NCBI GenBank assembly: GCA_963827685.1
Contig: CAWHBU010000006.1
Location: forward strand, 320,001-384,000
Origin: an uncultured delta proteobacterium
GTDB taxonomy: Bacteria; Desulfobacterota; BSN033; UBA1163
Length of the DNA stretch: 64,000 nucleotides
Direction: 5' to 3'
The translations under genes and the position numbers were made by a program. The notes below the pieces were generated by a model. It searched no databases. It was given only the letters and a program-made list of their open reading frames with translations, and had not been told where the DNA came from. This document shows, one piece after another, positions 10,779-34,071 of the stretch (positions are counted from its first letter, which is position 1; each line of letters opens with the position of its first letter).

Positions 10779-10938
10779 TTCTCTGCCTACGCGAATTCCG
10801 TCTTACGCTTTGTTATCCTTTCATTTCCTTAGATATAGCCACCCACAAAAATCCCAAATTCCAATATCCAAATCCCAAACAAATCCGAAATTCCAATTTC
10901 GAAATTCTAAACGATTATCTATTTTAGAAATTGGTATT

Positions 10939-11991
10939 CGCCAGTTCAATAATGAAGTGCAACACTTAGGGTGACGTAGTATCCTAAGTGTATGGAAAAG
11001 CTAAACTATCAACATCTCTCCAGTGAAGAGAGAGACAAAATTGCATATCTTCACGCACGAGGTAAAAGCATCTCGGAGATAGCCGAGAGTATCGGGCGAA
11101 ACAAAGGTTCCATTTCACGAGAACTCAAGCGTAACCGATCGCCCATCTACAACGTTTACTTGGCCAATAGGGCCCATGAAAGAGCCGTTAAACGAAAACA
11201 TGAATCCGTCCAACGACAGCGAATACGCAATCCTTTGATCCGTAGGTATATCATGAAAAAGCTCAAGCTCAAATGGTCTCCCGAACTGATTTCAGGAAGA
11301 CTTTCTTTAGAATATCCAGACCTTCGTATCAGCCATGAGGCCATTTATCAATTCATCTATGATAAATCGATCCCTACGAAGCAGAACCTGGTGCCCTATC
11401 TGACTCGGGCTCACAAGCGCCGTAGACTCCGTACCCATTCGCACCGGCATAAGACACTCCATATTCCACGACGGATCTCCATCAAAGAGCGTCCCCTGGA
11501 GGTCCAAACCCGGATCCAACCCGGCCATTGGGAAGCTGATACGTTAATCTCCCGAACAAGTAAGGCCGCTTTAGCGGTAGCCCTTGAGAGAACCAGTAGA
11601 CACCTGCACTTGGCCAAATTGCCTGCCAAGACCTCACAGAACTTGCGATGTGCCCTCACTCGCAGACTCAGCCGTTACCCCCAACCCCTTCTCCGCTCTA
11701 TCACCTATGATAATGGTTGCGAAAACGTGGAGCATGAGTATACTAACAAGGTGTTGGGAACCCAATCCTACTTCTGTGAACCCTTCCATAGTTGGGAAAA
11801 GACTTCTATCGAAAATGCCATCGGGCTGATCCGACGCTTCTTCCCCAAGAAGACGGATTTTAATCTGGTTCCCAAAGAACAAGTCAAACGCGTCGAAACT
11901 TTACTTAATACGAGGCCACGAAAATGCCTCAATTATCGAACGCCCAATGAAGTTTTGGGCTCATGTGTTGCACTTCACTGTTGAATGCAGC
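10939..11991 (+). mobile_element. IS30-family insertion sequence
   Basis: IR cores TTCAATAATGAAGTGCAACAC / GTGTTGCACTTCACTGTTGAA; probable 3-bp duplication ATT. Confidence 0.88.
10992..11984 (+). CDS. IS30-family transposase
   Basis: WSPELI, GHWEADT, SITYDNGCE, ENAIGLIRRFFPK. Confidence 0.95.
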   Translation: MEKLNYQHLSSEERDKIAYLHARGKSISEIAESIGRNKGSISRELKRNRSPIYNVYLANRAHERAVKRKHESVQRQRIRNPLIRRYIMKKLKLKWSPELISGRLSLEYPDLRISHEAIYQFIYDKSIPTKQNLVPYLTRAHKRRRLRTHSHRHKTLHIPRRISIKERPLEVQTRIQPGHWEADTLISRTSKAALAVALERTSRHLHLAKLPAKTSQNLRCALTRRLSRYPQPLLRSITYDNGCENVEHEYTNKVLGTQSYFCEPFHSWEKTSIENAIGLIRRFFPKKTDFNLVPKEQVKRVETLLNTRPRKCLNYRTPNEVLGSCVALHC

Positions 11992-12120
11992 ATTTTGGTC
12001 ATTGGTGCTTATTTGAAATTTGGTGCTTTGAATTTGGGATTTCCCTGTTTCTCTTACTCCAATCAATATTACATTAGATTCATCGTCTAACAATATATTT
12101 AATATACCGCGAAACAGGGC

Positions 12121-12606
12121 TTACCAATGAAAATTTTCATTTCTGGAAAGGCCGGTCAAGGCCAGGGCCAGAGCATCCCCTGCGTGGCTTGAGCTGAGGG
12201 GATTCTCGATCCTGAGAATTTGGCGGATCGCCTTCTTCATCTGTTCCTTATCGGCCCGACCGCTTCCGGTCAATGCACTCTTCACCTCCGTTGGTCTCAG
12301 TTCGACCACAGGAATGTCCATTTCTTGAGCCGCAAGGTAGATCACCCCCCTCACTTCACCCAATTGAATGGCTGCCTTAGGAAATTGTTTCAAGACAAAG
12401 ACCTCTTCTAAGGCAAGAAGGTCGGGGCTCCATTTTTCGAGAAGTCCTTTGAGCTCATCATAGATGGTTTTTAAACGAAGGGGAATAGGACAATTTGCTT
12501 CGGTTCGAATGGTTCCCCAATCACAGGCTTTCCCTCCCCGGGGAAGAGCCTCCACGACCCCAAACCCTGTCATCGCTAAACCCGGATCGATTCCAATCGC
12601 CTTCAC
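12121..12606 (-). CDS. ruvC: Holliday junction resolvase RuvC
   Basis: IGIDPG..TGFGV, LEEVF, GSGRADKEQM, DALALA; GTG start. Confidence 0.95.
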   Translation of the reverse strand: MKAIGIDPGLAMTGFGVVEALPRGGKACDWGTIRTEANCPIPLRLKTIYDELKGLLEKWSPDLLALEEVFVLKQFPKAAIQLGEVRGVIYLAAQEMDIPVVELRPTEVKSALTGSGRADKEQMKKAIRQILRIENPLSSSHAGDALALALTGLSRNENFHW

Positions 12607-12713
12607 CAAAAGATTTCTCCAGATGTGAAAAAGCCACCCAATCACTTTCCTTATAGAAGGGGTGGCTTCTAACTTAACTGAAACAGAGATGTTTATCTGA
12701 TAGTTGCATAAGA

Positions 12714-12903
12714 AACGTTGCCAGAGACAGGTGGGTGTGCTGGAAAAACTTTATAGCGGCACTTTTGACCATTTAGCTGCACTGTTATCAGATATTTTGC
12801 AGAAGTCACCATAGGTGAGATCGCATCTTACCTATAAAACTTATAAAAGAACCGCATTATAAAGTTTTGGAAGCACACTCACCTGCCGATTGAATGCAAC
12901 GTT
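12714..12903 (+). ncRNA. Unnamed structured motif, copy A
   Basis: Nested stems and conserved linkers shared with copies at 24105 and 25557. Confidence 0.6.
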
Positions 12904-12908
12904 AAGGT

Positions 12909-13658
12909 TTATGCACTGAGCCGTTCCATCTCCTCTTCGGCAATATCGAAATTGCCGTAGACTTTTGTGACGTCATCAGAATCTTCAAGCCCTTCCATTA
13001 ACTTCAGCATCTGTTCCGCCTCTTTTCCACTCAAACGAACAGTGCTTTGGGGAACCATGGTTACCTCAGCATAGCTGTGTTTGAACCCAGCTGCCTCAAC
13101 TGCCTTTTTCACTTCTTCAAAACTCGCTGGGTCGGTCGTTACTTCAAATTCCTTACCTGAATCCTTCACATCGAGGGCCCCCGCATCCAATGCTACTTCA
13201 ATCAGACGATCCTCATCGACTCCGCTTTTTTCGATGACGATCAACCCCTTTTTTCCAAACATCCAGGAGACGCAACCATTCTCACCAAGGCTACCATTAT
13301 ATTTGGAGAAGACATGTCTGACATCGGCAACGGTCCGATTTTTGTTATCCGTCACCACTTCCAGCATCATGGCCACGCCACCCGGTCCGTAACCCTCGTA
13401 CGTCAGCTCTTCGTAATTGACCCCTTCCAGTTCTCCGGTCCCCTTCTTGATCGCCCTTTCAATATTATCCTTCGGCATGTTCTCTGCTTTGGCTGCGAGA
13501 ACGGCAGTCCGGAGCCTCGGATTGGTATTGATATCCCCTCCCCCAAAGCGGGCGGCAACCATAATCTCTTTGATGATTTTAGTAAAGGCTTTCCCCCGTT
13601 TGGCATCGGCTGCGCCTTTTTTTCGCTTAATCGTACTCCACTTCGAATGTCCGGACAT
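12909..13658 (-). CDS. yebC: YebC/PmpR family protein
   Basis: MSGHSKW...YEGYGPGG...TDNKNRT; synteny with ruvCAB. Confidence 0.96.
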
Positions 13659-13745
13659 CGTTCTTTCCCGTGGGTGGAAAGTGGAAGGTGGCATGTAAAA
13701 TCTTCAAAACCACATTCTGCCTTCTACTTTCCACTTTCTAAAATA

Positions 13746-13820
13746 TGGTGGGCGCTAGAGGATTTGAACCTCTGACTTCCTGCGTGTGAAGCAGGCGTTC
13801 TCCCCCTGAACTAAGCGCCC
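13746..13820 (-). tRNA. tRNA-Val(CAC)
   Basis: GGGCGCT...TTCACAC loop...GGTTCAAATCC...AGCGCCCACCA. Confidence 0.95.
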
Positions 13821-13916: not shown

Positions 13917-15457
13917 TGTGTTAGCAAAGTAGAAATGTCCCCATTAACTGCTTAAGTTAAAATGTCCCCATGGAACAGGAGAAGATACTCATGGGGCAGA
14001 GGGAGTTAAAGAGGTGGCATCTGATGGAGATCGTAAAGGTAGGGAAGATCACCTTGAGGGAGGCTGGAGAGAGGATAGGTGTGTCCTACCGTCAGGCGAA
14101 GCGGATTGGGCAAGCGATCCGGGAGAGAGGGATCAAAGCCTTGGTGCATGGTAACAGGGGACGACCTTCGAACCACCGGCTCAAGGAGTCCTTACGAGAA
14201 AGGGTATTAAAGCTGTCGGAAGAGGTTTACTGGGACTTTAACGATACCCATTTTACGGAGAAACTTCGGGAGTGCGAAGGGATCGATTTGAATCGAGAGA
14301 CGGTGAGGAAGTTACGGCGGGAGGCGGGGATGGCACCCAAGCGCAGGCGTCGGGGACCTAAGCATCGAAAGCGACGGGAGCGAATGGCTCAAGAAGGATG
14401 GATGGTCCTCTGGGATGGGAGTCCCCACCCCTGGTTTGGCCGAGACCTTCCACCTTGCTGTCTGATGGCTGCCATCGATGATGCGACCGGGAAACTGCTG
14501 GCCGCCCGTTTCTTTCCCTTTGAAGGTTCCGCAGGCTATTTCTGGCTTCTTAAAGAGATGATTAAAAAATATGGAATCCCAATGATGATCTATCAGGATC
14601 GCCACGGGTCGTTGCATCGGAATGACCCTCACTGGAGCTTGGAAGAGCAACTCGCTGGCCGACAGGAACCGACTCAAGTCGGATTAGCTCTCGAAGCCTT
14701 GGGGATTGAGCCGATCTCGGCTCTTTCTCCTCAGGCCAAAGGAAGGATAGAAAAACTCTTTGCCACCCTGCAGGATCGTCTGGGAGCAGAACTCCGTTTA
14801 AAAGAAATTGTAACGATGGAAGAGGCCAATCGCTTTTTACAATCAACCTTTTTAAAAGACTTTAACCGTCGCTTTGCCGTCAGACCCAGAGAATCCCAAA
14901 AAGCCTGGAGAGAAGTCCCAAACCATCTGGACCTGGATCGAATCATCAGCTTTCGCTATACGGCTACGGTCGGCAACGATAATACGGCTCGGCTGGGAGG
15001 ATTGGTTCTCGATATTCCCCCTGGCCCTCAAAGAAGATCCTATGCGAAGCTCAAGGTGGAAGCTCGGCAGCTTCTCAACGGATCTTGGAGAATCTACGCT
15101 CAAGATCAGTTGATTGCGAAACATCCTCCTACTTCCCTCCGGGAACCGGTGAGAGCTCTTCCCCGAAAGAAACACCATGCAAAAGGAGTTAAAGATTACC
15201 ACTGGGTCTATCTCGCTTCAGCACCCTCCAGGGAAGGTGACCCTTACCCCCTGCTCATCGAACATCGTTGATTGTAGCGCAACCTGGCGATTCACATTTC
15301 GCTTGTTGCCCATTAATAGGGATCTCTTATGAGAGCTCACTTAAAAAAAAGAAACTCAAATTGAAGTTCATCCACTCACTCAAGGGTCAAGATCAAAACC
15401 CTTGGAGGGGACATTTTCACGTTGCAGTTAAGGGGACATATTGACTTCGCTTAAACA
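13917..15457 (+). mobile_element. ISNCY / IS1202-like element, copy 1
   Basis: TGT...ACA ends with repeated AAATGTCCCC; 15-bp duplication CGGTTTTTATCCCTC (13902-13916, 15458-15472). Confidence 0.92.
13970..15271 (+). CDS. ISNCY/IS1202-like DDE transposase
   Basis: WDGSPH, IDDATG, YQDRH, PQAKGRIE; identical protein at 61889. Confidence 0.93.
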   Translation: MEQEKILMGQRELKRWHLMEIVKVGKITLREAGERIGVSYRQAKRIGQAIRERGIKALVHGNRGRPSNHRLKESLRERVLKLSEEVYWDFNDTHFTEKLRECEGIDLNRETVRKLRREAGMAPKRRRRGPKHRKRRERMAQEGWMVLWDGSPHPWFGRDLPPCCLMAAIDDATGKLLAARFFPFEGSAGYFWLLKEMIKKYGIPMMIYQDRHGSLHRNDPHWSLEEQLAGRQEPTQVGLALEALGIEPISALSPQAKGRIEKLFATLQDRLGAELRLKEIVTMEEANRFLQSTFLKDFNRRFAVRPRESQKAWREVPNHLDLDRIISFRYTATVGNDNTARLGGLVLDIPPGPQRRSYAKLKVEARQLLNGSWRIYAQDQLIAKHPPTSLREPVRALPRKKHHAKGVKDYHWVYLASAPSREGDPYPLLIEHR

Positions 15458-15512
15458 CGGTTTTTATCCCTCCCAAATCCCGATTTAGAAAAGAAAACCC
15501 TCTTACCGTCAT

Positions 15513-15587
15513 GTCATTGCGAGCACCTAAAAGGTGCGTGGCAATCTCTCGGAAAGAGCGAGACTGCTTCGTTCCACTCGCAGCGAC
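15513..15587. repeat. GTCATTGCGAG-type REP-like palindrome
   Basis: GTCATTGCGAG...GCAATCTC...GAGACTGCTTCG...CTCGCAGCGAC. Confidence 0.65.
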
Positions 15588-15726
15588 GGTTCCGTAACCC
15601 GGGACTTGGGGACCGCTTATTCACCGCTCTGAGACGGCTCTATGAACCCTTGAGGGCTAAAGATTTTCAGGTGACCTTCCCCCGAGTTGATGGACACACC
15701 TGAGAATTTGTATCATTGGACAGGAG

Positions 15727-16029
15727 GTGCGTATGGGGGAAAAGAATCGTCATTTCAGCCGTGAGTTCAAACGAGATGCAGTGCAGTTGGTCACAGAGAA
15801 AGGGATGCCGGTAGGCAAGGTGGCCCGAGAGCTTGATATCCATCCCAATCTTCTTCATCTATGGAGGAGGAGGTTCTTAGCTAAAGGGGATAAAGCCTTC
15901 GTAGGGAAGGGCCGTGTAACGCCAGAGGAAGCGGAAATAAAGGGGCTCCGGAAGGAATTAGAAAAGGTGAAGGAAGAGAGGGACATTTTAAAAAAAGCCT
16001 TGGCCGTATTCTCCAAACGAAACAGATGA
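15727..16029 (+). CDS. IS3 transposase OrfA
   Basis: FSREFKRDAV HTH; ERDILKKA. Confidence 0.9.
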   Translation: MRMGEKNRHFSREFKRDAVQLVTEKGMPVGKVARELDIHPNLLHLWRRRFLAKGDKAFVGKGRVTPEEAEIKGLRKELEKVKEERDILKKALAVFSKRNR

Positions 16030-16883
16030 AGTATCGGTTGATAGAAGAGCACAGAGAGACCTACAAGATAAGGAGTATGAGTGAAGTGTTGAAGGTATCC
16101 AGAAGTGGTTATTATGCGTGGAAGACGCGTCAACCGAGCACACGTCAGAAAGACGATGAGGAGTTGCTGGGGCACATACGGGAGATCCACACTCAAAGCA
16201 GAAGGCTCTATGGGAGTCCGCGGATCGCAGCGGAGCTCAATAAGCAGGGTCTTAGATGTGGGAAGAACCGGGTAGCCAGGATCATGAAAGAGCACTCCAT
16301 ATGGGCAGAAGTGAAGAAAAAGAGATTCAGGCGGACTACCGATTCACGGCATCATTATGCCTTGGCTGCAAACTTACTGATTGACCAGAGGCAGACAGAG
16401 GGGGTATGGGCATCTGATATTACGTTTGTGCCCACTTCTGAGGGATGGCTCTATGTGGCAGCAGTGATGAATGTGAAAAGCAGAAAGATCATTGGGCTGT
16501 CCATGAGCGATAAGCTCTCTCAGGAGCTAGCTTCTGCTGCGCTCAGGGACGCGGTGGGCAGGCAAAGCCCCTCTGAAGGGTTGATCCACCATTCTGATCG
16601 AGGCAGGCAGTATGCAAGCTATGCCTATCAGGAGCTTTTAAGAGAATACGGCATGACTCCTAGTATGAGCAGAAGTGGCAATTGTTATGATAATGCCTAT
16701 GTGGAGTCTTTCTTTGGCACGCTCAAGACGGAGTTGGTCCATGGTGAGCGGTACCGTTCAAGGCTGGAGGCGAGGCTTAGTATTTTTGAGTACGTGGAAG
16801 TGTTTTATAATCGTCAGAGGAGTCATTCGGCATTAGGGTACAGGAGCCCAGAGCAGTATGAAAAGCTCCTTAATGAAACTTAA
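16026..16883 (+). CDS. IS3 transposase OrfB
   Basis: WASDITF, HHSDRGRQY, DNAYVESFF. Confidence 0.93.
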   Translation: MKYRLIEEHRETYKIRSMSEVLKVSRSGYYAWKTRQPSTRQKDDEELLGHIREIHTQSRRLYGSPRIAAELNKQGLRCGKNRVARIMKEHSIWAEVKKKRFRRTTDSRHHYALAANLLIDQRQTEGVWASDITFVPTSEGWLYVAAVMNVKSRKIIGLSMSDKLSQELASAALRDAVGRQSPSEGLIHHSDRGRQYASYAYQELLREYGMTPSMSRSGNCYDNAYVESFFGTLKTELVHGERYRSRLEARLSIFEYVEVFYNRQRSHSALGYRSPEQYEKLLNET

Positions 16884-17404
16884 CTATATGTCCACTTTTT
16901 CAGGGGAAGGTCAAGGAATAATTTTGTTATCCCATAACCCAACAGAGCTCCTGCAATGACATCGGTGGGATAATGAACGCCTAAGTAGATTCGAGTCCAT
17001 CCGATGAATGCCGCCACAATGAAAAAAACAACTCGGTATCGCGGAAATCGCTCAGCCAAGAGGGTCGCCATCATAAATGCAAAAGCGGTATGTGCACTCG
17101 GAAAACCGGGGTCGAGAATTTCTCCCGGACCTTTGGAGAGTTTGGAGGCCATCTCCAGAAACAAAAATGGTCTCTGACGTTGAATGAGAAATTTGAGGCT
17201 GTAGATGACTGCCGATTGGGTGCCGTAAAGAAGAACCAAACGGCGAAGAACTTTTCTCTGTCTGGTTATGATCCAACTGAGAATAATAAAGAGGATCACT
17301 GCGAAATGGCTTCCGAGATAGGTGATCCAGGGTATCACCTGATCCAAAACCGGCGTGCTCCACCATCCATTCGCCCACCTTATAAAATCTAATTCCCAAG
17401 CCAT
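16880..17404 (-). CDS. PAP2-family phosphatase, C-terminus replaced by IS3
   Basis: K.....RP, FPSAH, TRIYLGVHYPTDV. Confidence 0.88.
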   Translation of the reverse strand: MAWELDFIRWANGWWSTPVLDQVIPWITYLGSHFAVILFIILSWIITRQRKVLRRLVLLYGTQSAVIYSLKFLIQRQRPFLFLEMASKLSKGPGEILDPGFPSAHTAFAFMMATLLAERFPRYRVVFFIVAAFIGWTRIYLGVHYPTDVIAGALLGYGITKLFLDLPLKKWTYS

Positions 17405-17561
17405 CTTTTGTTTGCCTTCACTATTCGAATAAATAGAAACATCCAAACATATCCCCTCCCCCTTTGACGGGGGAGGGCGAGGGTGGGGGTGGATACGTCT
17501 TATCCCCCCTCCCCACCATCCCCTCCCGCTAGGGGAGGGGAGAAATCTAAGTTGGTTCATT

Positions 17562-18224
17562 TCATATGGAAAGTTGCGGAATAATATCTGCCAGATTCTT
17601 ACCCTTGATGCAGACACTTGCAATCTGTTCAAGATCCTTGCAGGAAGAATTGAACGCGATGCAAAACCCTACCATGCGAAACATGTCCATATCCCCTTTG
17701 CTATCTCCGATGGCGATCACTTCTTCGGGCTTCACTCCAAATTTTTTGAGAATCTTCCTCACCCATTCTGCTTTCTTATCATAATAGACCCGAATCTTGA
17801 CCCTCCCACTCAATAGTCCATTTTCATGAAGGAGATCATTAGAAACAGAGTAATCAAATCCATATTTCTGATGTACCCAATCGGAAAGGAGAGAAAGTCC
17901 GGAGGAAACCAACGAAAGTTTCAACCCTTTCTGTTTGAGGTAATGGATCAGTTCATTCGCGCCCGGGTGAAAGGGAACCGTCTTGACAATCTCCAGCAGC
18001 TCCTCCACCCTCATTCCCTTCCAAACTTGGGCATCGCGCTCACAAAATTCTTCATAAGAAATCTTCCCGGCCAAAAACTGACTCTGATACCGCTCTGCAA
18101 ACCCGTACCACTTTCCCAATCGCTTATGAATATACTCCCAGATGGATCGTTCCTGGGTAAGTGTCCCATCGAGGTCGAAAGTGGCCAATTTAAATGGTGG
18201 ATTCTTTCTCGTTGACATTGGCAA
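17562..18224 (-). CDS. HAD phosphatase, SerB-like
   Basis: FDLDGTL, VSSG, GDSKGD. Confidence 0.85.
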   Translation of the reverse strand: MPMSTRKNPPFKLATFDLDGTLTQERSIWEYIHKRLGKWYGFAERYQSQFLAGKISYEEFCERDAQVWKGMRVEELLEIVKTVPFHPGANELIHYLKQKGLKLSLVSSGLSLLSDWVHQKYGFDYSVSNDLLHENGLLSGRVKIRVYYDKKAEWVRKILKKFGVKPEEVIAIGDSKGDMDMFRMVGFCIAFNSSCKDLEQIASVCIKGKNLADIIPQLSI

Positions 18225-18319
18225 TATTTCAAAAAGAGGTTTTTCTAAGACCTAAAGCTGTAAGCGGAGATAAATTCTTGGGAGGGTGGGTCATCAACAA
18301 TCTTGCAGGGGTCTCAAAG

Positions 18320-18700
18320 TTAACCTTTAGATAACATACCTACCATCTTTATTTCCTTGATCTTATTCTTTTCATCGACATGAACAATGACAGGCTTGTG
18401 TTTGGCAATCTCTTTTTCTTCATGCTGAGAATAACAGCAGATAATGATGAGGTCTCCTACTGAAACCAGCCTGGCAGCAGCCCCGTTCAAACCGATTTCA
18501 CCCTTGCCACGGTCGCCCCTCATGACATAAGTCGAAAATCTTTGTCCATTGGTGATATTGTAGATATCCACTTTTTCATATTCAATGAGTTTTGCAACAT
18601 CCATGAGTTCCTTGTCAATGGTAATGCTCCCCTCATAATCAATATCGGCTCTCGTAACGGTTGCCCTATGGATCTTCGATTTGAGCATACTGATGATCAC
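18320..18700 (-). CDS. panD: Aspartate 1-decarboxylase
   Basis: KSKIHRATVT...YEGSITID, NGAAAR. Confidence 0.96.
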   Translation of the reverse strand: MIISMLKSKIHRATVTRADIDYEGSITIDKELMDVAKLIEYEKVDIYNITNGQRFSTYVMRGDRGKGEIGLNGAAARLVSVGDLIIICCYSQHEEKEIAKHKPVIVHVDEKNKIKEIKMVGMLSKG

Positions 18701-18705
18701 TGCGC

Positions 18706-18826
18706 TTACCTCCCGATGATAGTGTGATCGATGAGTCTAACAGACTTAACCATTGCCGCAACGACCACTACTGCATGTTTCTTACATTCACAACTCTTTC
18801 AGGCGTCTCAGCGTCTCTGATTTCCC
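18706..18826 (-). pseudogene. panC: panC C-terminal remnant
   Basis: EIRDAETPERVVNVRKHAVVVVAAMVKSVRLIDHTIIGR* resembles PanC end (RLIDN); frame closed upstream. Confidence 0.6.
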
Positions 18827-19392
18827 CCTATCGAAAAGAAACGCCTTTCACAGGCTCATTGAAATTATAAGTCCTTTTCTCTCCAAAATCAACTAACTCT
18901 TCCGCTTTCACAAAAGATCAATAAAGAACTGTTACCCTTTATCTGCAAACATTATTCCTTATCGCTTCCACCAACAGGGTACCTTTTTCGTAAGGACGAC
19001 GGACTAATAGGTACCCGATTTCTCTACTTCTGTCAAGGGCGGACGGCCATCCCAATAATAGACATTGACTCAATCCAGTTCCCCCTCTCCCTTGATGCCT
19101 GCCTGCGGGAAGCCGCTTCGGCGAAGGCAGGGGAGAGGGCTGGGTCGCCGACGCGCCATAGCCTGCCTTCGCCGAAACGCTCTCGCTTGCCGGAGAACTT
19201 GTTCGGCCAGCAGGTCGTGCAGGCAGGCCGCTTTGGCGACGGCGCGGTGAGGGTGCATTATCACCTTTTTTATCCCCCTCCCCTTAATCCCCTCCCACCA
19301 GGGGAGGGGAGTTTTTGGGGTTTGTCTTTTTCAATTTCTATTTTTCGGGAGCCATTAAAAGTATTGCCTCAGTTATCCGTGTCGGTGATACC

Positions 19393-24018: not shown

Positions 24019-24104
24019 GATTTTGTTCCTCCTCTCGCTTCGGGGTAATGTTTTCCTCAAACAATTGGATTGAGTGAACTCTCCATTACATAAAACATTT
24101 CAAA

Positions 24105-24280
24105 AAGGCTATTGGGTGGGCTAAAAAAGCTTTACAGTGGAACCTTTACCGTCTTGCTACAGGGCTTCCAACCACTTTACGGGAACCACCTTGGGTAATA
24201 TCGCATGTTCCCTATCAAACATAGTGAAGAACCACTTGGTAAAGATTTGGAAGCCCACCCAATAGCCTTATCAATGCAAC
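24105..24280 (+). ncRNA. Unnamed structured motif, copy B
   Basis: 18-bp perfect stem AAGGCTATTGGGTGGGCT / AGCCCACCCAATAGCCTT enclosing the same core as copy A. Confidence 0.6.
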
Positions 24281-24312
24281 ATCTGGGTTACGTCAAACCT
24301 GCTCCCCATCCA

Positions 24313-25512
24313 TCAAACCATTTTTTCTTTATGGTACATTCTGAATAACTCCCGGCCGATAATCATCTTTTGAATGTTAGAGGTTCCTTCGAGATATTCC
24401 ATTCCCCGAGCATCCGCACTGAGCTGGTTGATCAGCTCATTTCTGAAGTAACCTCTTCCGCCCATTAACACCTGCGCCTTGGTGGCCACCTCCATCACCA
24501 CTTGGGAGGCGAATAGCTTTGCTTGAGAGGAGCTCATCCTATAGTAGGAGGTGCCAACTTGCTTCAGGGCATGAAGGCATAACCCCCTCGCGGCGTTGAT
24601 TCGAGTGAACATCTCCGAGATTTGAAAACTGATATCCTGGCTGCTGGTCAAGGGATGATCGAATTGCCTTCTTTGATGGGCATAATGATAGAGTTCGCGA
24701 AAAATCCGGTAAGCCAAACCACAGCAGATGCCGGCAATATGAATTCTTCCCCGATCGATGACATCGAGGGTCAAGACCAGGCCCATTCCTTCATTCCCCA
24801 CCAGATGCTTAGCGGGGACAGGAGAATCTTTAAAAATGAGTTGTCCCGTCGGTAAGATGTTCAACCCGTCTTTATCGGGCAATCCCTTGATGGTGAAGCC
24901 TGGCAAATCATTCTCCACAATAAACACGCTCAAGGAACGGGGGCCCAGGACACCCTTCGTGTTGGCGAGAATGGCATAAAAGCGAGCCAAGCCACTGTTC
25001 GAGATAAAGATTTTCTCTCCATTAAACAGGTAATGCGGACCCACTCTCTCTGCCCTCAAGCCGACGGCACTTGCATCCGATCCTGCCTTTTCTTCCGTGA
25101 TGGCAATGGCTCCAAAATCCCCTTCTGCCATCTTCGGGAGATACTCTTCCTTTTGTTGTCCCGTGCCACTGAGTATGATATCGATCGCGCGTCCATGGGA
25201 TACAAAAATGATGCCCAGCCCCGGAGAAGCGTAACCCAGGAGTTCCATCATAAAGTAGATCTCCTGCTCAGAGGTCTTTTCTCCTCCATATTCCGGGGGG
25301 ACAAAGAGTTTGAAAAAATGCGCCTCTTTTAAACCGGAAACGATTCGATCCCACTCCTTTGGGAAGACAGCTTGGTGGTTCTCTATCTTTGTCTCCAGAA
25401 AAGAATAGGTGGGAAGGATCAACTCTTTAAGGAGAGCAATAAAACGATTCACATATTTTTTCTCCCTCCAGCCGGGATGAAAAGAATCAAAGATATTCAC
25501 CAGATTTTCCAT
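24313..25512 (-). CDS. Acyl-CoA dehydrogenase family protein
   Basis: AITEEKAGSD, NGEKIFISN, RRQFD, MGGRGY, LEGTSNIQ. Confidence 0.92.
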   Translation of the reverse strand: MENLVNIFDSFHPGWREKKYVNRFIALLKELILPTYSFLETKIENHQAVFPKEWDRIVSGLKEAHFFKLFVPPEYGGEKTSEQEIYFMMELLGYASPGLGIIFVSHGRAIDIILSGTGQQKEEYLPKMAEGDFGAIAITEEKAGSDASAVGLRAERVGPHYLFNGEKIFISNSGLARFYAILANTKGVLGPRSLSVFIVENDLPGFTIKGLPDKDGLNILPTGQLIFKDSPVPAKHLVGNEGMGLVLTLDVIDRGRIHIAGICCGLAYRIFRELYHYAHQRRQFDHPLTSSQDISFQISEMFTRINAARGLCLHALKQVGTSYYRMSSSQAKLFASQVVMEVATKAQVLMGGRGYFRNELINQLSADARGMEYLEGTSNIQKMIIGRELFRMYHKEKMV

Positions 25513-25556
25513 CGCCTCAGCCTCCTTTAAATGGGCATAGAATGAAAATCTGTAAC

Positions 25557-25800
25557 ACTTTAGCGCTTTGAAAAATCCGCCAATGTGACACCGGTTTCCG
25601 CTAAGGACGGGATTGGAAAAGTTTTAGAGCGGAAACCTTTTACCGGTTCATTCAGTTGGCTCCAATGGCATGGCAGCGTTTCGCTCACTCTCACCGTTTC
25701 AAAACCGTAAAATATGAAAGACCGCATTCTAAAACTTTGGAAGTCCCGGCCTTGGCGGGAACAAAGGGACAAATGGCACTCCATTTCAAGGCGCTAAAGT
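25557..25800 (+). ncRNA. Unnamed structured motif, copy C
   Basis: Outer stem ACTTTAGCGCTTTGAAA / TTTCAAGGCGCTAAAGT; core GGAAAA-GTTTTAGAGCGG...CCGCATTCTAAAAC-TTTGGAAG. Confidence 0.55.
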
Positions 25801-26357
25801 ACTACGAAATTCTTAATAATAGAGCTCCCGAATGGCGTCAAAATCGATTCCGGATGAAATTGCACCCCTTCCACCTTATGTTTTCGGTGTCTCAACCCCA
25901 TGATCTCCCCTTCCTCTGTCCAGGCGCTTATTTCAAGACATTCCGGCAGCGCCTTTCTATCTACAATAAGAGAGTGGTAACGAGTTGCCTCAAAGGGATT
26001 GGGCAGGCCGCTGTAAATGGTTTGACCATCGTGAAAAATGGGGGAGGTCTTGCCATGTCTGATCCGTTCGGCCCTGATCACGTTGCCACCAAAGGCATAG
26101 CCAATGGCCTGATGCCCCAAGCAGACGCCCATGATGGGAATGGATTGATGAAACTGCCTGATCACTTCAACCGTAATTCCTGCCTCCTTAGGTGATCGAG
26201 GGCCAGGAGAAAGGAAGATAGAAGTCGGTTTTAAATTCCTAATGTCTTCAAGGGAGACGGCATCATTCCGTAGGACGACCACTTCTTCCCCAACCCGGGC
26301 GATATCATGGAAGAGATTGTAGGTGAAAGAATCATAATTATCGATCAAGAGAATCAT
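25794..26357 (-). CDS. trpG: Anthranilate synthase component II
   Basis: IDNYDSFT, GVCLGHQ, RYHSL, QFHPES. Confidence 0.95.
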   Translation of the reverse strand: MILLIDNYDSFTYNLFHDIARVGEEVVVLRNDAVSLEDIRNLKPTSIFLSPGPRSPKEAGITVEVIRQFHQSIPIMGVCLGHQAIGYAFGGNVIRAERIRHGKTSPIFHDGQTIYSGLPNPFEATRYHSLIVDRKALPECLEISAWTEEGEIMGLRHRKHKVEGVQFHPESILTPFGSSIIKNFVVL

Positions 26358-28221: not shown

Positions 28222-29346
28222 TTAAAACCCTTGCAAATGGTCTCCCGGAGATTTTCCCATTTCTACTTCATATGGATTTCTTAAATACCTGCGCTCAGTA
28301 TTGGTGAATTTGATCAGCCTCTCCAATTTATTGAAGGCTTCCCCCGAATCGATGGATTGATTGGCCAACTCAATCCCTTCGCCGAGATTTTTTGCCCTTC
28401 CGGCTATCATAAAGACTGCTGCCGCGTTCAAAACAGTGATATCTCGCTTTACCCCTCGAGTGCCCCTTAGGATCTCAACGATGATCTCGGCGTTTTTTTT
28501 CTTATCCCCGCCTTCGATCTCAATGAGCTTTCCCCTTTTCAACCCGAAATCTTTAGGCTTGATGAGGTAGGTCTTTATTCGTCCACCTTTAAACTCCGTA
28601 ACCTTGGTCTTTCCAGTGATGCTCATCTCATCCAAGGTATCTTCTCCGTGGACAACGAGACCCTTTTGAATCCCAAGATTCTTCAAAACAGTGGCCATCG
28701 TCTCTGTCAACCTTGGTTCATAAACGCCCAATACCTGGATCTTTGCGCCTGCGGGGTTGATCAAAGGTTCCAAAAGGTTGAATATCGTCCTGATGCCGAT
28801 CTTCTCCCGGAGTGCAATAATGTGTCTCAAACCACTCTGGGCTAAAGGTTCGTAAAGGAAACAAATACCAATTTCCTTAATGCATCTTTCCAGTTGAGTG
28901 GATGTCATATCCAGATTGATCCCCAGTGCCTCAACGACATCTGCAGATCCACAAAGAGGAGAAACAGATTTTCTCCCATGTTTGGCCACTTTTAGACCCC
29001 CTCCTGCCACCACGAAGGCTGTTGCTGTCGAGATATTAAATGTTTTTGTTCCCTCCGTTAACCCCTTTGCCGTGCTTAGGATCGTTTCCCTTTCGACCGT
29101 GATTTCTTCACGGTCCACGCATACAACATCCTCTCCTCCATTGATCATCGAGACCTTATCCTTGATGACTCTTGCTGCTACGGTGATCTCTTGAGGGGTC
29201 TCTCCCTTCATCCTTAAGGCTGTAATAAATGAAGCGATTTGTGCATCGGATGCACTTCCTTTTGTAATCTCCTCCATCACCTCTCTCATTTCTTCTTCTG
29301 TTAAATCTCTCTTTAAAACCACCTTGCCTGTTGATTCTTTGATCAT
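28222..29346 (-). CDS. TrpD paralogue with degenerate PRPP-binding motif
   Basis: Colinear with TrpD but LSTAKGLTEG replaces LDTCGTGGDG and KHGRK replaces KHGNR. Confidence 0.85.
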   Translation of the reverse strand: MIKESTGKVVLKRDLTEEEMREVMEEITKGSASDAQIASFITALRMKGETPQEITVAARVIKDKVSMINGGEDVVCVDREEITVERETILSTAKGLTEGTKTFNISTATAFVVAGGGLKVAKHGRKSVSPLCGSADVVEALGINLDMTSTQLERCIKEIGICFLYEPLAQSGLRHIIALREKIGIRTIFNLLEPLINPAGAKIQVLGVYEPRLTETMATVLKNLGIQKGLVVHGEDTLDEMSITGKTKVTEFKGGRIKTYLIKPKDFGLKRGKLIEIEGGDKKKNAEIIVEILRGTRGVKRDITVLNAAAVFMIAGRAKNLGEGIELANQSIDSGEAFNKLERLIKFTNTERRYLRNPYEVEMGKSPGDHLQGF

Positions 29347-29391
29347 CCCCTTGCTCCTTTCATTTGGATTTAAATAATTTTCCTTTAAAAC

Positions 29392-34000: not shown

Positions 34001-34071
34001 GAACCGCCCGGTGCGGACCCGCACGCCGGGTGGTGTGGGGAGGGGCGGCTAAAAACCGTCCCTTACCCGAT
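34001..34071 (+). ncRNA. Group IIC(-attC) intron remnant, domains V-VI
   Basis: GAACCGCCCGGTGCGGACCCGCACGCCGGGTGGTGTGGGGAGGGG...CCCTTACCCGAT followed by TAGCTC of attC. Confidence 0.9.

Follow-up and report, generated by a model that had tools for sequence, protein, structure and literature searches.

The 64,000-nt window (the whole stretch of DNA that was analysed, in whose coordinates all window positions are given) contains three stretches that share a folded architecture while their stems differ in sequence, and the question raised by this locus is what kind of element they are. In the original prediction, they were described as a three-copy motif and interpreted as an unrecognised ncRNA or ssDNA element with a fixed scaffold and a variable, possibly guide-like, insert. 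All three structured stretches (12714-12903, 24105-24280 and 25557-25800) were confirmed in + orientation, and the shared architecture was seen in alignments. Common to the three are P1, a GGAAAA-like loop, P2, GYGG, A(C)CTTT, a variable part, CCRC, a 2-nt bulge, P2', TTGGAAG and P1'. The element limits were revised to 12696-12907 for copy A, 24079-24287 for copy B and 25552-25805 for copy C. The repeat family is real and undescribed, and its identity is ordinary, namely that of a MITE with IS1380-type ends; the transposon reading, in which A, B and C are copies of this non-coding MITE family, is considered likely.

Copy A is a whole element of 212 bp on the + strand that belongs to the subfamily with IS1380-type ends, and it was delimited by its terminal inverted repeats (TIRs) and by an element-free allele in the contigs of three sequencing runs. 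The TIRs are TCTGATAGTTGCAT (12696-12709) and ATGCAACGTTAAGG (12894-12907). The same 4-mer, TTTA, is found on both sides as a target-site duplication (5' copy at 12692-12695, 3' copy at 12908-12911), and a single TTTA is found in the empty allele. The core of A (12726-12892, +) was identified by a covariance-model match of 169 bits, by its fold and by pair counts. Within this core, P1 is formed by 12726-12741 with 12872-12887, the loops are GGAAAAA (12742-12748) and TTTTGGA (12865-12871), and P2 is formed by CTTTATAGCGG (12749-12759) with CCGC-AT-TATAAAG (12852-12864), the apical variable domain lying between its arms.

Copy B is a whole element of 209 bp with IS1380-type ends (+ strand; core at 24106-24272, 176.3 bits), whose 5' end, CTCTCCATTACAT, is degenerate and whose target duplication has decayed (TGAA / TTAC). 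In copy C (254 bp, + strand), the core at 25598-25762 is enclosed by different ends (GTAACACTTTAGCGC... / ...GCGCTAAAGTACTAC). A possible 8-bp duplication with 7 of 8 letters alike surrounds C (GAAAATCT at 25544-25551 and GAAATTCT at 25806-25813), and a sister copy has none; orthologous copies of C are present in the relatives G010 and G004. All three copies are short and without a coding frame of their own, as is the rule for MITEs. Only one open reading frame (ORF) within the copies reaches 60 aa, a 74-aa frame that runs across C and is not conserved as a protein feature.

The motif had been called unrecognised, and this held in a scan of Rfam 15, in which the copies gave no match at gathering score and, at E ≤ 10, only chance-level, microRNA-like and other matches. 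Gathering-score matches in the window were limited to a tRNA and a group II intron domain, both located elsewhere; the latter is the catalytic domain of such an intron, at 34002-34071 on the + strand (44 bits, gathering score 40). A description of the element was not found in the literature searched, and the ISfinder tables may bear on the family assignment.

Each copy had also been placed just past a minus-strand stop codon, and this was observed at all three sites. The yebC stop (12909-12911, TAA on the - strand) lies within the 3' target duplication of A, the acyl-CoA dehydrogenase stop (24313-24315) is located 25 nt past B, and the trpG stop (25794-25796) is inside C. Copy A is situated between yebC (12909-13694, -) and ruvC (12121-12645, -). 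C and B flank the acyl-CoA dehydrogenase gene (24313-25512, -), which is itself placed between trpG and trpD of the trp operon. The final three codons of trpG and its stop are inside C (25794-25805), and the insertion of C re-terminated this gene. In the genomes G041 and G043, trpG adjoins trpD and the dehydrogenase gene is absent there, and in G052 and G021 the dehydrogenase gene stands directly before trpD, with a short spacer that has no element. From these layouts, the elements are therefore additions to operon spacers and not parts of the operons. MITE insertions would explain the odd spacers in the yebC-ruvC and trp operons, one of them supplying the last codons and the stop of trpG. A second trpD-like gene was observed at about 28300-29364.

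A covariance model was built from copies A, B and C. It gave 47 matches in the 5.2-Mb genome, which came to 42 places on nine contigs after subtraction of five weak reverse-strand echoes; the original count of three copies was thus far exceeded in the own genome alone, and relatives have hundreds more. When 40 relatives were searched, all 24 same-family genomes (11 genera) had 2-63 matches and none of the 16 genomes from other families had any. Four of five further family members were matched, the exception being G060 (95% complete), and 70 model matches were obtained in G042. A strict pattern scan, with one genome per species, returned at least 115 stretches. Among the 80 matches listed, nearly all came from metagenome-assembled genomes labelled Thermodesulfobacteriota, Deltaproteobacteria or Syntrophaceae, one was labelled Syntrophorhabdus, and five carried other phylum labels, several of these on short contigs. 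As far as was searched, the element family is confined to one family of uncultured bacteria labelled Thermodesulfobacteriota or Syntrophaceae. Such repeats are to be reckoned with as a reason why assemblies of these genomes are fragmented.

The surroundings of the 42 copies were then considered. Copies beside a recombinase, reverse transcriptase or nuclease gene had been suggested as a point to look for, and no such gene recurs within 4 kb of the 42 copies. After clustering of the ORFs of at least 90 aa within the same distance, no protein family was tied to the element, and the biggest cluster of neighbouring proteins comprised four loci at varying distances. Of the 42 copies, 24 are antisense to both of their nearest long ORFs and 10 are sense, 5 have convergent neighbours and 3 have divergent ones.

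Marks that favour the transposon reading are found at the ends. The TIRs CCYNNNNGTTGCAT...ATGCAACNNNNRGG are present on A, B and relatives, and the similarity of flank-aligned copies stops there. With up to 2 mismatches allowed, the TIR pair was placed in 29 of the 76 aligned copies; by the pattern used it was not placed in the other 47, some of which have other end types and some degenerate ends. A 4-bp direct target-site duplication was perfect in 13 of these 29 copies and matched in three of four letters in a further 10, and the 13 perfect cases were reached by none of 2000 flank shuffles (null mean 2.3). Because non-palindromic cases occur (TTTA, TAAA, GTTA, TACA, TCCA), the duplication is direct and not inverted. 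The duplicated target is T/A-rich (TTTA, TTAA, TAAA and similar) and is often a stop codon or a short spacer behind a gene. In the A/B subfamily, a core of about 165 nt is joined by short spacers to 14-18-bp TIRs that start with CC, and two deletion derivatives, one of 47 bp flanked by TTAT and one of 66 bp flanked by TTAA, retain the ends and the duplication. A target duplication of 7-10 bp was considered and rejected, as over 41 copies it was no better than in shuffles, despite one 9-bp case (L032).

Out of four DNA runs examined, an empty allele of A was recovered from three public ones, two of one study (X2 and X4) and one of another (X3). Their contigs join 12652 to 12907 through 37 letters, with a single TTTA left, and the 37 joining letters are a diverged version of 12653-12691. 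This allele matches the state expected before insertion, and its source is related strains that need not be identical to the one analysed here. An empty site with a single target copy was obtained for A only, the B and C spacers in other genera being short and too diverged to align. The TIRs, the duplication, the empty allele and the common ends are the marks of a double-strand DDE-type transposon derivative. The identification as an ncRNA or ssDNA element gave way to these observations, namely the TIRs and 4-bp duplication of A and B, the empty allele of A and an IS1380-family element with the same ends.

Metagenome contigs also skip 1246 bp (15670-16917) and about 1780 bp (17491-19273) of the window. 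The former corresponds to an insertion sequence of about 1260 bp with 15 copies in the genome, and related strains are thus without the insertions at these two places as well.

The full-length element with matching ends was located in G042. It is a 1541-bp insertion sequence (L247:618-2158) with TTAA/TTAA flanks, whose left end, CCTTAACGTTGCATAAAA, matches the MITE consensus end at 18 of 18 positions and whose right end, CCTGACAGTTGCATAAAA, is similar. Its 497-aa product scored 224.6 bits on NF033539, the IS1380-family transposase (NCBIfam cut-off 180). MITE copies in the same genome are flanked by TTAT/TTAT and TAGA/TAGA duplications. In the IS1380 family, ends start with CC and 4-5-bp repeats are made on insertion; this was also observed in the further IS1380-family copies of relatives, which have CC at the start and 4-5-bp repeats on their flanks, like the MITE. 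Matches to PF13701 were found in 28 of 55 genomes of the taxonomic family, and the L247 element is among those so identified. The MITE and the L247 insertion sequence have only about 19 terminal bp in common, and the covariance model gave no match on the latter at E ≤ 1. Judged from the two sequences, the core of about 165 nt is not derived from this insertion sequence.

In the own genome, an IS1380-family transposase was not found, the one PF13701 match scoring 19 bits, below the cut-off. Among its multi-copy insertion sequences, none has MITE ends, as determined by TIR-pair scans and from the ends of all multi-copy repeats, and the 1.1 Mb of loci scanned also yielded no autonomous partner. 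Several candidates for a partner were set aside. The one at C2:31355 is a gene with a metallo-beta-lactamase fold, the orientation of an IS30-like element that has a GTTGCA-like motif is wrong, and the ends of the ISNCY and IS30 elements next to A differ from those of the MITE. Insertion sequences abound in this genome, where more than a dozen types are multi-copy. The ISNCY-family insertion sequence (13917-15465) encodes a 433-aa transposase (NF033594, 370 bits), has 8 genome copies and adjoins a tRNA gene (13749-13820, -), and the IS30-family element is found at 10936-12041.

The elements may have been moved by an IS1380-family transposase supplied in trans, and since the own genome is without one, the copies there are probably now immobile. 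In a passage of one source, IS1380-family members are described as mobilising adjacent DNA by misrecognising terminal structures or using alternative ends (PMC9330008), and a passage of another places IS1380 transposases as the prokaryotic outgroup of piggyBac (PMC10813416). The use of alternative ends by an IS1380-family transposase would be a plausible route by which a foreign core came to lie between such ends.

The unusual part of these elements is the folded core, which is kept by compensatory change and is common to several end types. Copy A folded at -75.6 kcal/mol on the + strand (z = -9.0) and at -71.6 kcal/mol on the - strand (z = -8.2), with 0 of 200 shuffles as good in either case. 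With RNAalifold, 45 pairs were predicted from the three copies, and at 20 of these both partners had changed. The claim that stem pairing is kept while the sequence differs was upheld by a 78-row alignment, in which 17 of 17 P1 pairs were changed on both sides. In this alignment, which was fitted to the model, includes two reverse-strand rows and leans towards the model structure, 94.7% of cells were paired in P1, 93.1% in P2 and 98.7% in GCGG/CCGC; two inner helices of the model were weakly supported (53% and 73% paired). None of 500 shuffles of the alignment reached any of five measures, and slid controls paired at 40-50%.

The core has the shape of a long rod that consists of P1, a purine-rich internal loop, P2, GCGG/CCGC and the variable apical domain, and its conserved loops are GGAAAA / TTTGGAAG. 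A K-turn or a CsrA site in the GGA loops was weighed on visual inspection, and neither is claimed. P1 was resolved into 13 sequence clusters that have almost no letters in common, yet all of them pair. Stem sequence drifts both between and within subfamilies, and the stems are kept by compensatory change. Within subfamilies (changes were taken from clusters of at least 5 copies), 47 double changes restored a Watson-Crick pair, 10 did not and 1 led to a wobble, and 78 single changes were counted. In slid controls, with partners moved by 1-2 columns, there were 14-26 doubles vs 147-160 singles. From the counts of double and single changes, complementarity is therefore actively kept, either by selection or by arm-to-arm conversion of the palindrome.

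Additions to the core were observed at two places, the GGAAAA loop between P1 and P2 (J1/2) and the bulge of P2. In several own-genome copies, the loop holds differing extra G+C-rich hairpins of about 30-65 nt (for example G000:C4:112910-113154, C6:294318-294579, C2:1045039 and C2:524296). A separate 34-nt palindrome with a CTTCGG loop, CCTGCCTGCG.GAAGCCGCTTCGGCGAAGGCAGG, is found at 19100-19133 (and 19160-19240) of the window and has at least 33 copies in the genome. It lies inside P2 of at least 8 element copies, always between TTTAnA and GCGG, and forms the centre of at least 5 other palindromic repeat families; the metagenome-contig depth at its site is very high. An inner element with GGAA...GGAA around P2 as its target duplication was considered as well and rejected, as 0 of 48 rows with a non-GGAA 5' word repeat the same word on the 3' side.

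The same core is also found within elements that have other ends, namely C, types T3-T6 and further types in G018, G052 and G059. Besides the C type (GTAACACTTTAGCGC), the end groups of the own genome are GAGACTGTGTCG..., GGAAGGTGTGAAAAAATTG... and AATGCCTCAGTC..., and the GGAAGGTGTGAAAAAATTG... ends resemble IS5-family ends. A target duplication was not recovered for the other end types (7 of 8 letters at C, none at its sister copy), and no more is claimed for these types than that they are elements whose ends differ; they are not proven to be MITEs. The single T3 copy without a core (C1:98237) has kept part of the 3' loop and shows GCT microhomology, and so looks like a deletion. Insertion of the core into empty palindromes was considered as well and is tentatively set aside on this ground.

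The spacer between the dehydrogenase gene and trpD (about 24060-24300) has three occupants in three species of one genus. These are copy B in the own genome (G000), the core in GAGACTGTGTCG-type ends in G010 (L273), and GAGACTGTGTCG-type ends around a GTCATTGCGAGC...-type palindrome, with no core, in G004 (L274). A palindrome similar to the GTCATTGCGAGC... type is present at about 15510-15590 of the window. A stretch like the 5' end of type T6, ATTGCCTCAGTTATCCGTGTCGGTGAT, was seen at 19364-19390 with no core behind it, and may belong to another element that uses those ends.

Against the MITE account, neutral decay predicts neither compensatory change within subfamilies nor conserved asymmetric loops. 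A functional structured RNA or ssDNA module, captured and amplified repeatedly by the ends of different insertion sequences, is possible, though doubtful; the core would in that case be modular mobile cargo and not the debris of a transposon. Its purine-rich internal loop and P2 would then bind a host or element-encoded factor, and IS1380-type ends and at least one other end family would have served as carriers, a version of events to which we give a small chance.

The core might also be a functional structured RNA of the + (model) strand, that is, a mobile ncRNA gene family for which transposon ends are only the vehicle, and this appears unlikely. The conservation of the core across elements with different ends argues for it, as do the sequence-conserved unpaired loops beside a sequence-free, always-paired P1, the compensatory changes within subfamilies and the stable extra hairpins tolerated at fixed sites (the J1/2 loop and the P2 bulge); with no Rfam match, such an RNA would be new. 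The excess of G.U over A.C on one strand points the same way, with 124 vs 29 cells in P1, 17 vs 8 in P2, and 40 vs 23 when events are counted (binomial p = 0.04). Against this, no sigma-70-like promoter or intrinsic terminator was found by scanning in or beside the three window copies, both strands fold about equally well, and both orientations relative to genes occur. The asymmetry is also gone among singletons (21 vs 18), and arm-to-arm conversion can keep palindrome arms complementary without an RNA. The original assignment of the folded strand, as antisense to the host genes, is thus weakly supported: its G.U excess on the + strand was recovered, and the near-equality among singletons and the occurrence of both orientations speak against the call itself.

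The variable segment, for which a guide-like role had been proposed, is the apical domain, which is similar among members of a subfamily and differs from one subfamily to the next. The complementarity reported for A does exist as a 9-nt match of 12786-12794 to 12694-12702, but the supposed flank is the degenerate 5' end of the element itself. Across copies, complementarity to their own 80-nt flanks was near chance: matches of at least 9 nt were found in 3 of 74 copies vs 1.8 expected from the flanks of other copies, and matches of at least 8 nt in 16 of 74 vs about 7.9. We do not think that the elements are guide RNAs.

It is very improbable that the motif is an ssDNA recombination site of attC- or REPIN-like kind, for which a tyrosine or HUH enzyme would be the mover and the dehydrogenase gene between B and C the cassette. 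A conserved structure with drifting sequence and some strand asymmetry would suit such a site, and the one gene that lies between B and C is indeed missing from the trp operon in G041 and G043. The direct 4-bp duplication and the TIRs common to a DDE-type insertion sequence largely refute it, however, and the copies are dispersed and not arrayed, the ends of B and C differ, the dehydrogenase gene stands directly before trpD without an element in G052 and G021, and no neighbouring enzyme recurs.

A cis-acting RNA of the host operons on the - strand (a leader, riboswitch, terminator or transcript stabiliser) is hardly credible: each of the three window copies does occupy an operon spacer, ahead of ruvC, the dehydrogenase gene or trpD, the - strand folds well and a T run follows P1 on that strand in B, but the neighbour genes are unrelated across the 42 copies, 10 copies are oppositely oriented, the T run is not conserved between subfamilies, no terminator was found by scanning at the element edges, related strains live without copy A and the wobble bias points to the other strand. 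A riboswitch or T-box leader on the - strand was rejected on the same two grounds of unrelated neighbour genes and both orientations.

With the MITE reading retained, the elements were compared with known systems. They are like the MITEs of DDE insertion sequences (IS1380 family, piggyBac relatives) in being short, non-coding, multi-copy and intergenic, and like IS1380-family MITEs in particular in their TIRs, identical over 18 bp to those of a full-length element, in the 4-bp T/A-rich direct duplication and in the empty allele. They are unlike DDE-derived MITEs in that the interior is a conserved folded module with compensatory evolution and not the deletion remnant of an insertion sequence, that the core also occurs between other ends, and that the host genome has no partner. 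Transposable modules and mosaic non-autonomous transposons, such as TIMEs and the TMos of ISPme1 and ISEcp1, likewise carry foreign DNA between ends recognised by a trans-supplied transposase; theirs carry genes and are kilobases long, whereas the cargo here is a non-coding hairpin of 165 nt in tens of copies.

ERIC, Correia/NEMIS, RUP, BOX, bcr1 and REP/BIME repeats are family-specific high-copy imperfect palindromes in operon spacers, and they fold as long stem-loops once transcribed. In comparison with their general description, the element here is likewise a family-specific high-copy palindrome of operon spacers. It is unlike ERIC, Correia, RUP and BOX-type repeats in that the stem sequence is free while the loops and P2 are fixed, and in that several end types enclose the same core.

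The IS110 bridge RNA, the omega-RNA of IS605/IscB and HEARO are similar in combining a structured scaffold with a variable segment tied to mobile DNA. Unlike them, the elements here have no adjacent recombinase or nuclease, no Rfam match and near-chance flank complementarity, and they do have a target duplication. Integron attC sites form cassette arrays beside an integrase and have no target duplication, whereas the element copies are dispersed over nine contigs and have a direct one. In REP/REPIN systems with RAYT, a Y1 transposase is flanked by the copies; these are palindromes of 20-40 nt without target duplication, whereas the element here is about 210 bp long, with duplication and no recurrent neighbour.

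Our best guess for the core is that selection, acting on the element, maintains its fold as a compact hairpin. Such a hairpin, formed in ssDNA or in a read-through transcript of either strand, would juxtapose the ends or render an insertion into an operon harmless, and the conserved loops and P2 may serve as a site for a host factor. If the fold is functional, the core would be a non-coding module spread by several transposases, and would offer a handle on the structure-dependence of MITE success. With the transposon reading, the identity of the three motifs is settled: they are members of a MITE family not described before, from an uncultured lineage related to syntrophs, for which an IS1380-family element is a plausible driver, and there is no need to seek a riboswitch or guide RNA at these loci.

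One further hairpin, GAAGCCACCCC...GGGTGGCTTTTT (- strand), was observed at 12629-12676, between copy A and the start of ruvC. Its match to rli31 is weak (28.5 bits vs a gathering score of 80) and probably due to chance, and the hairpin is kept in the empty allele of A.
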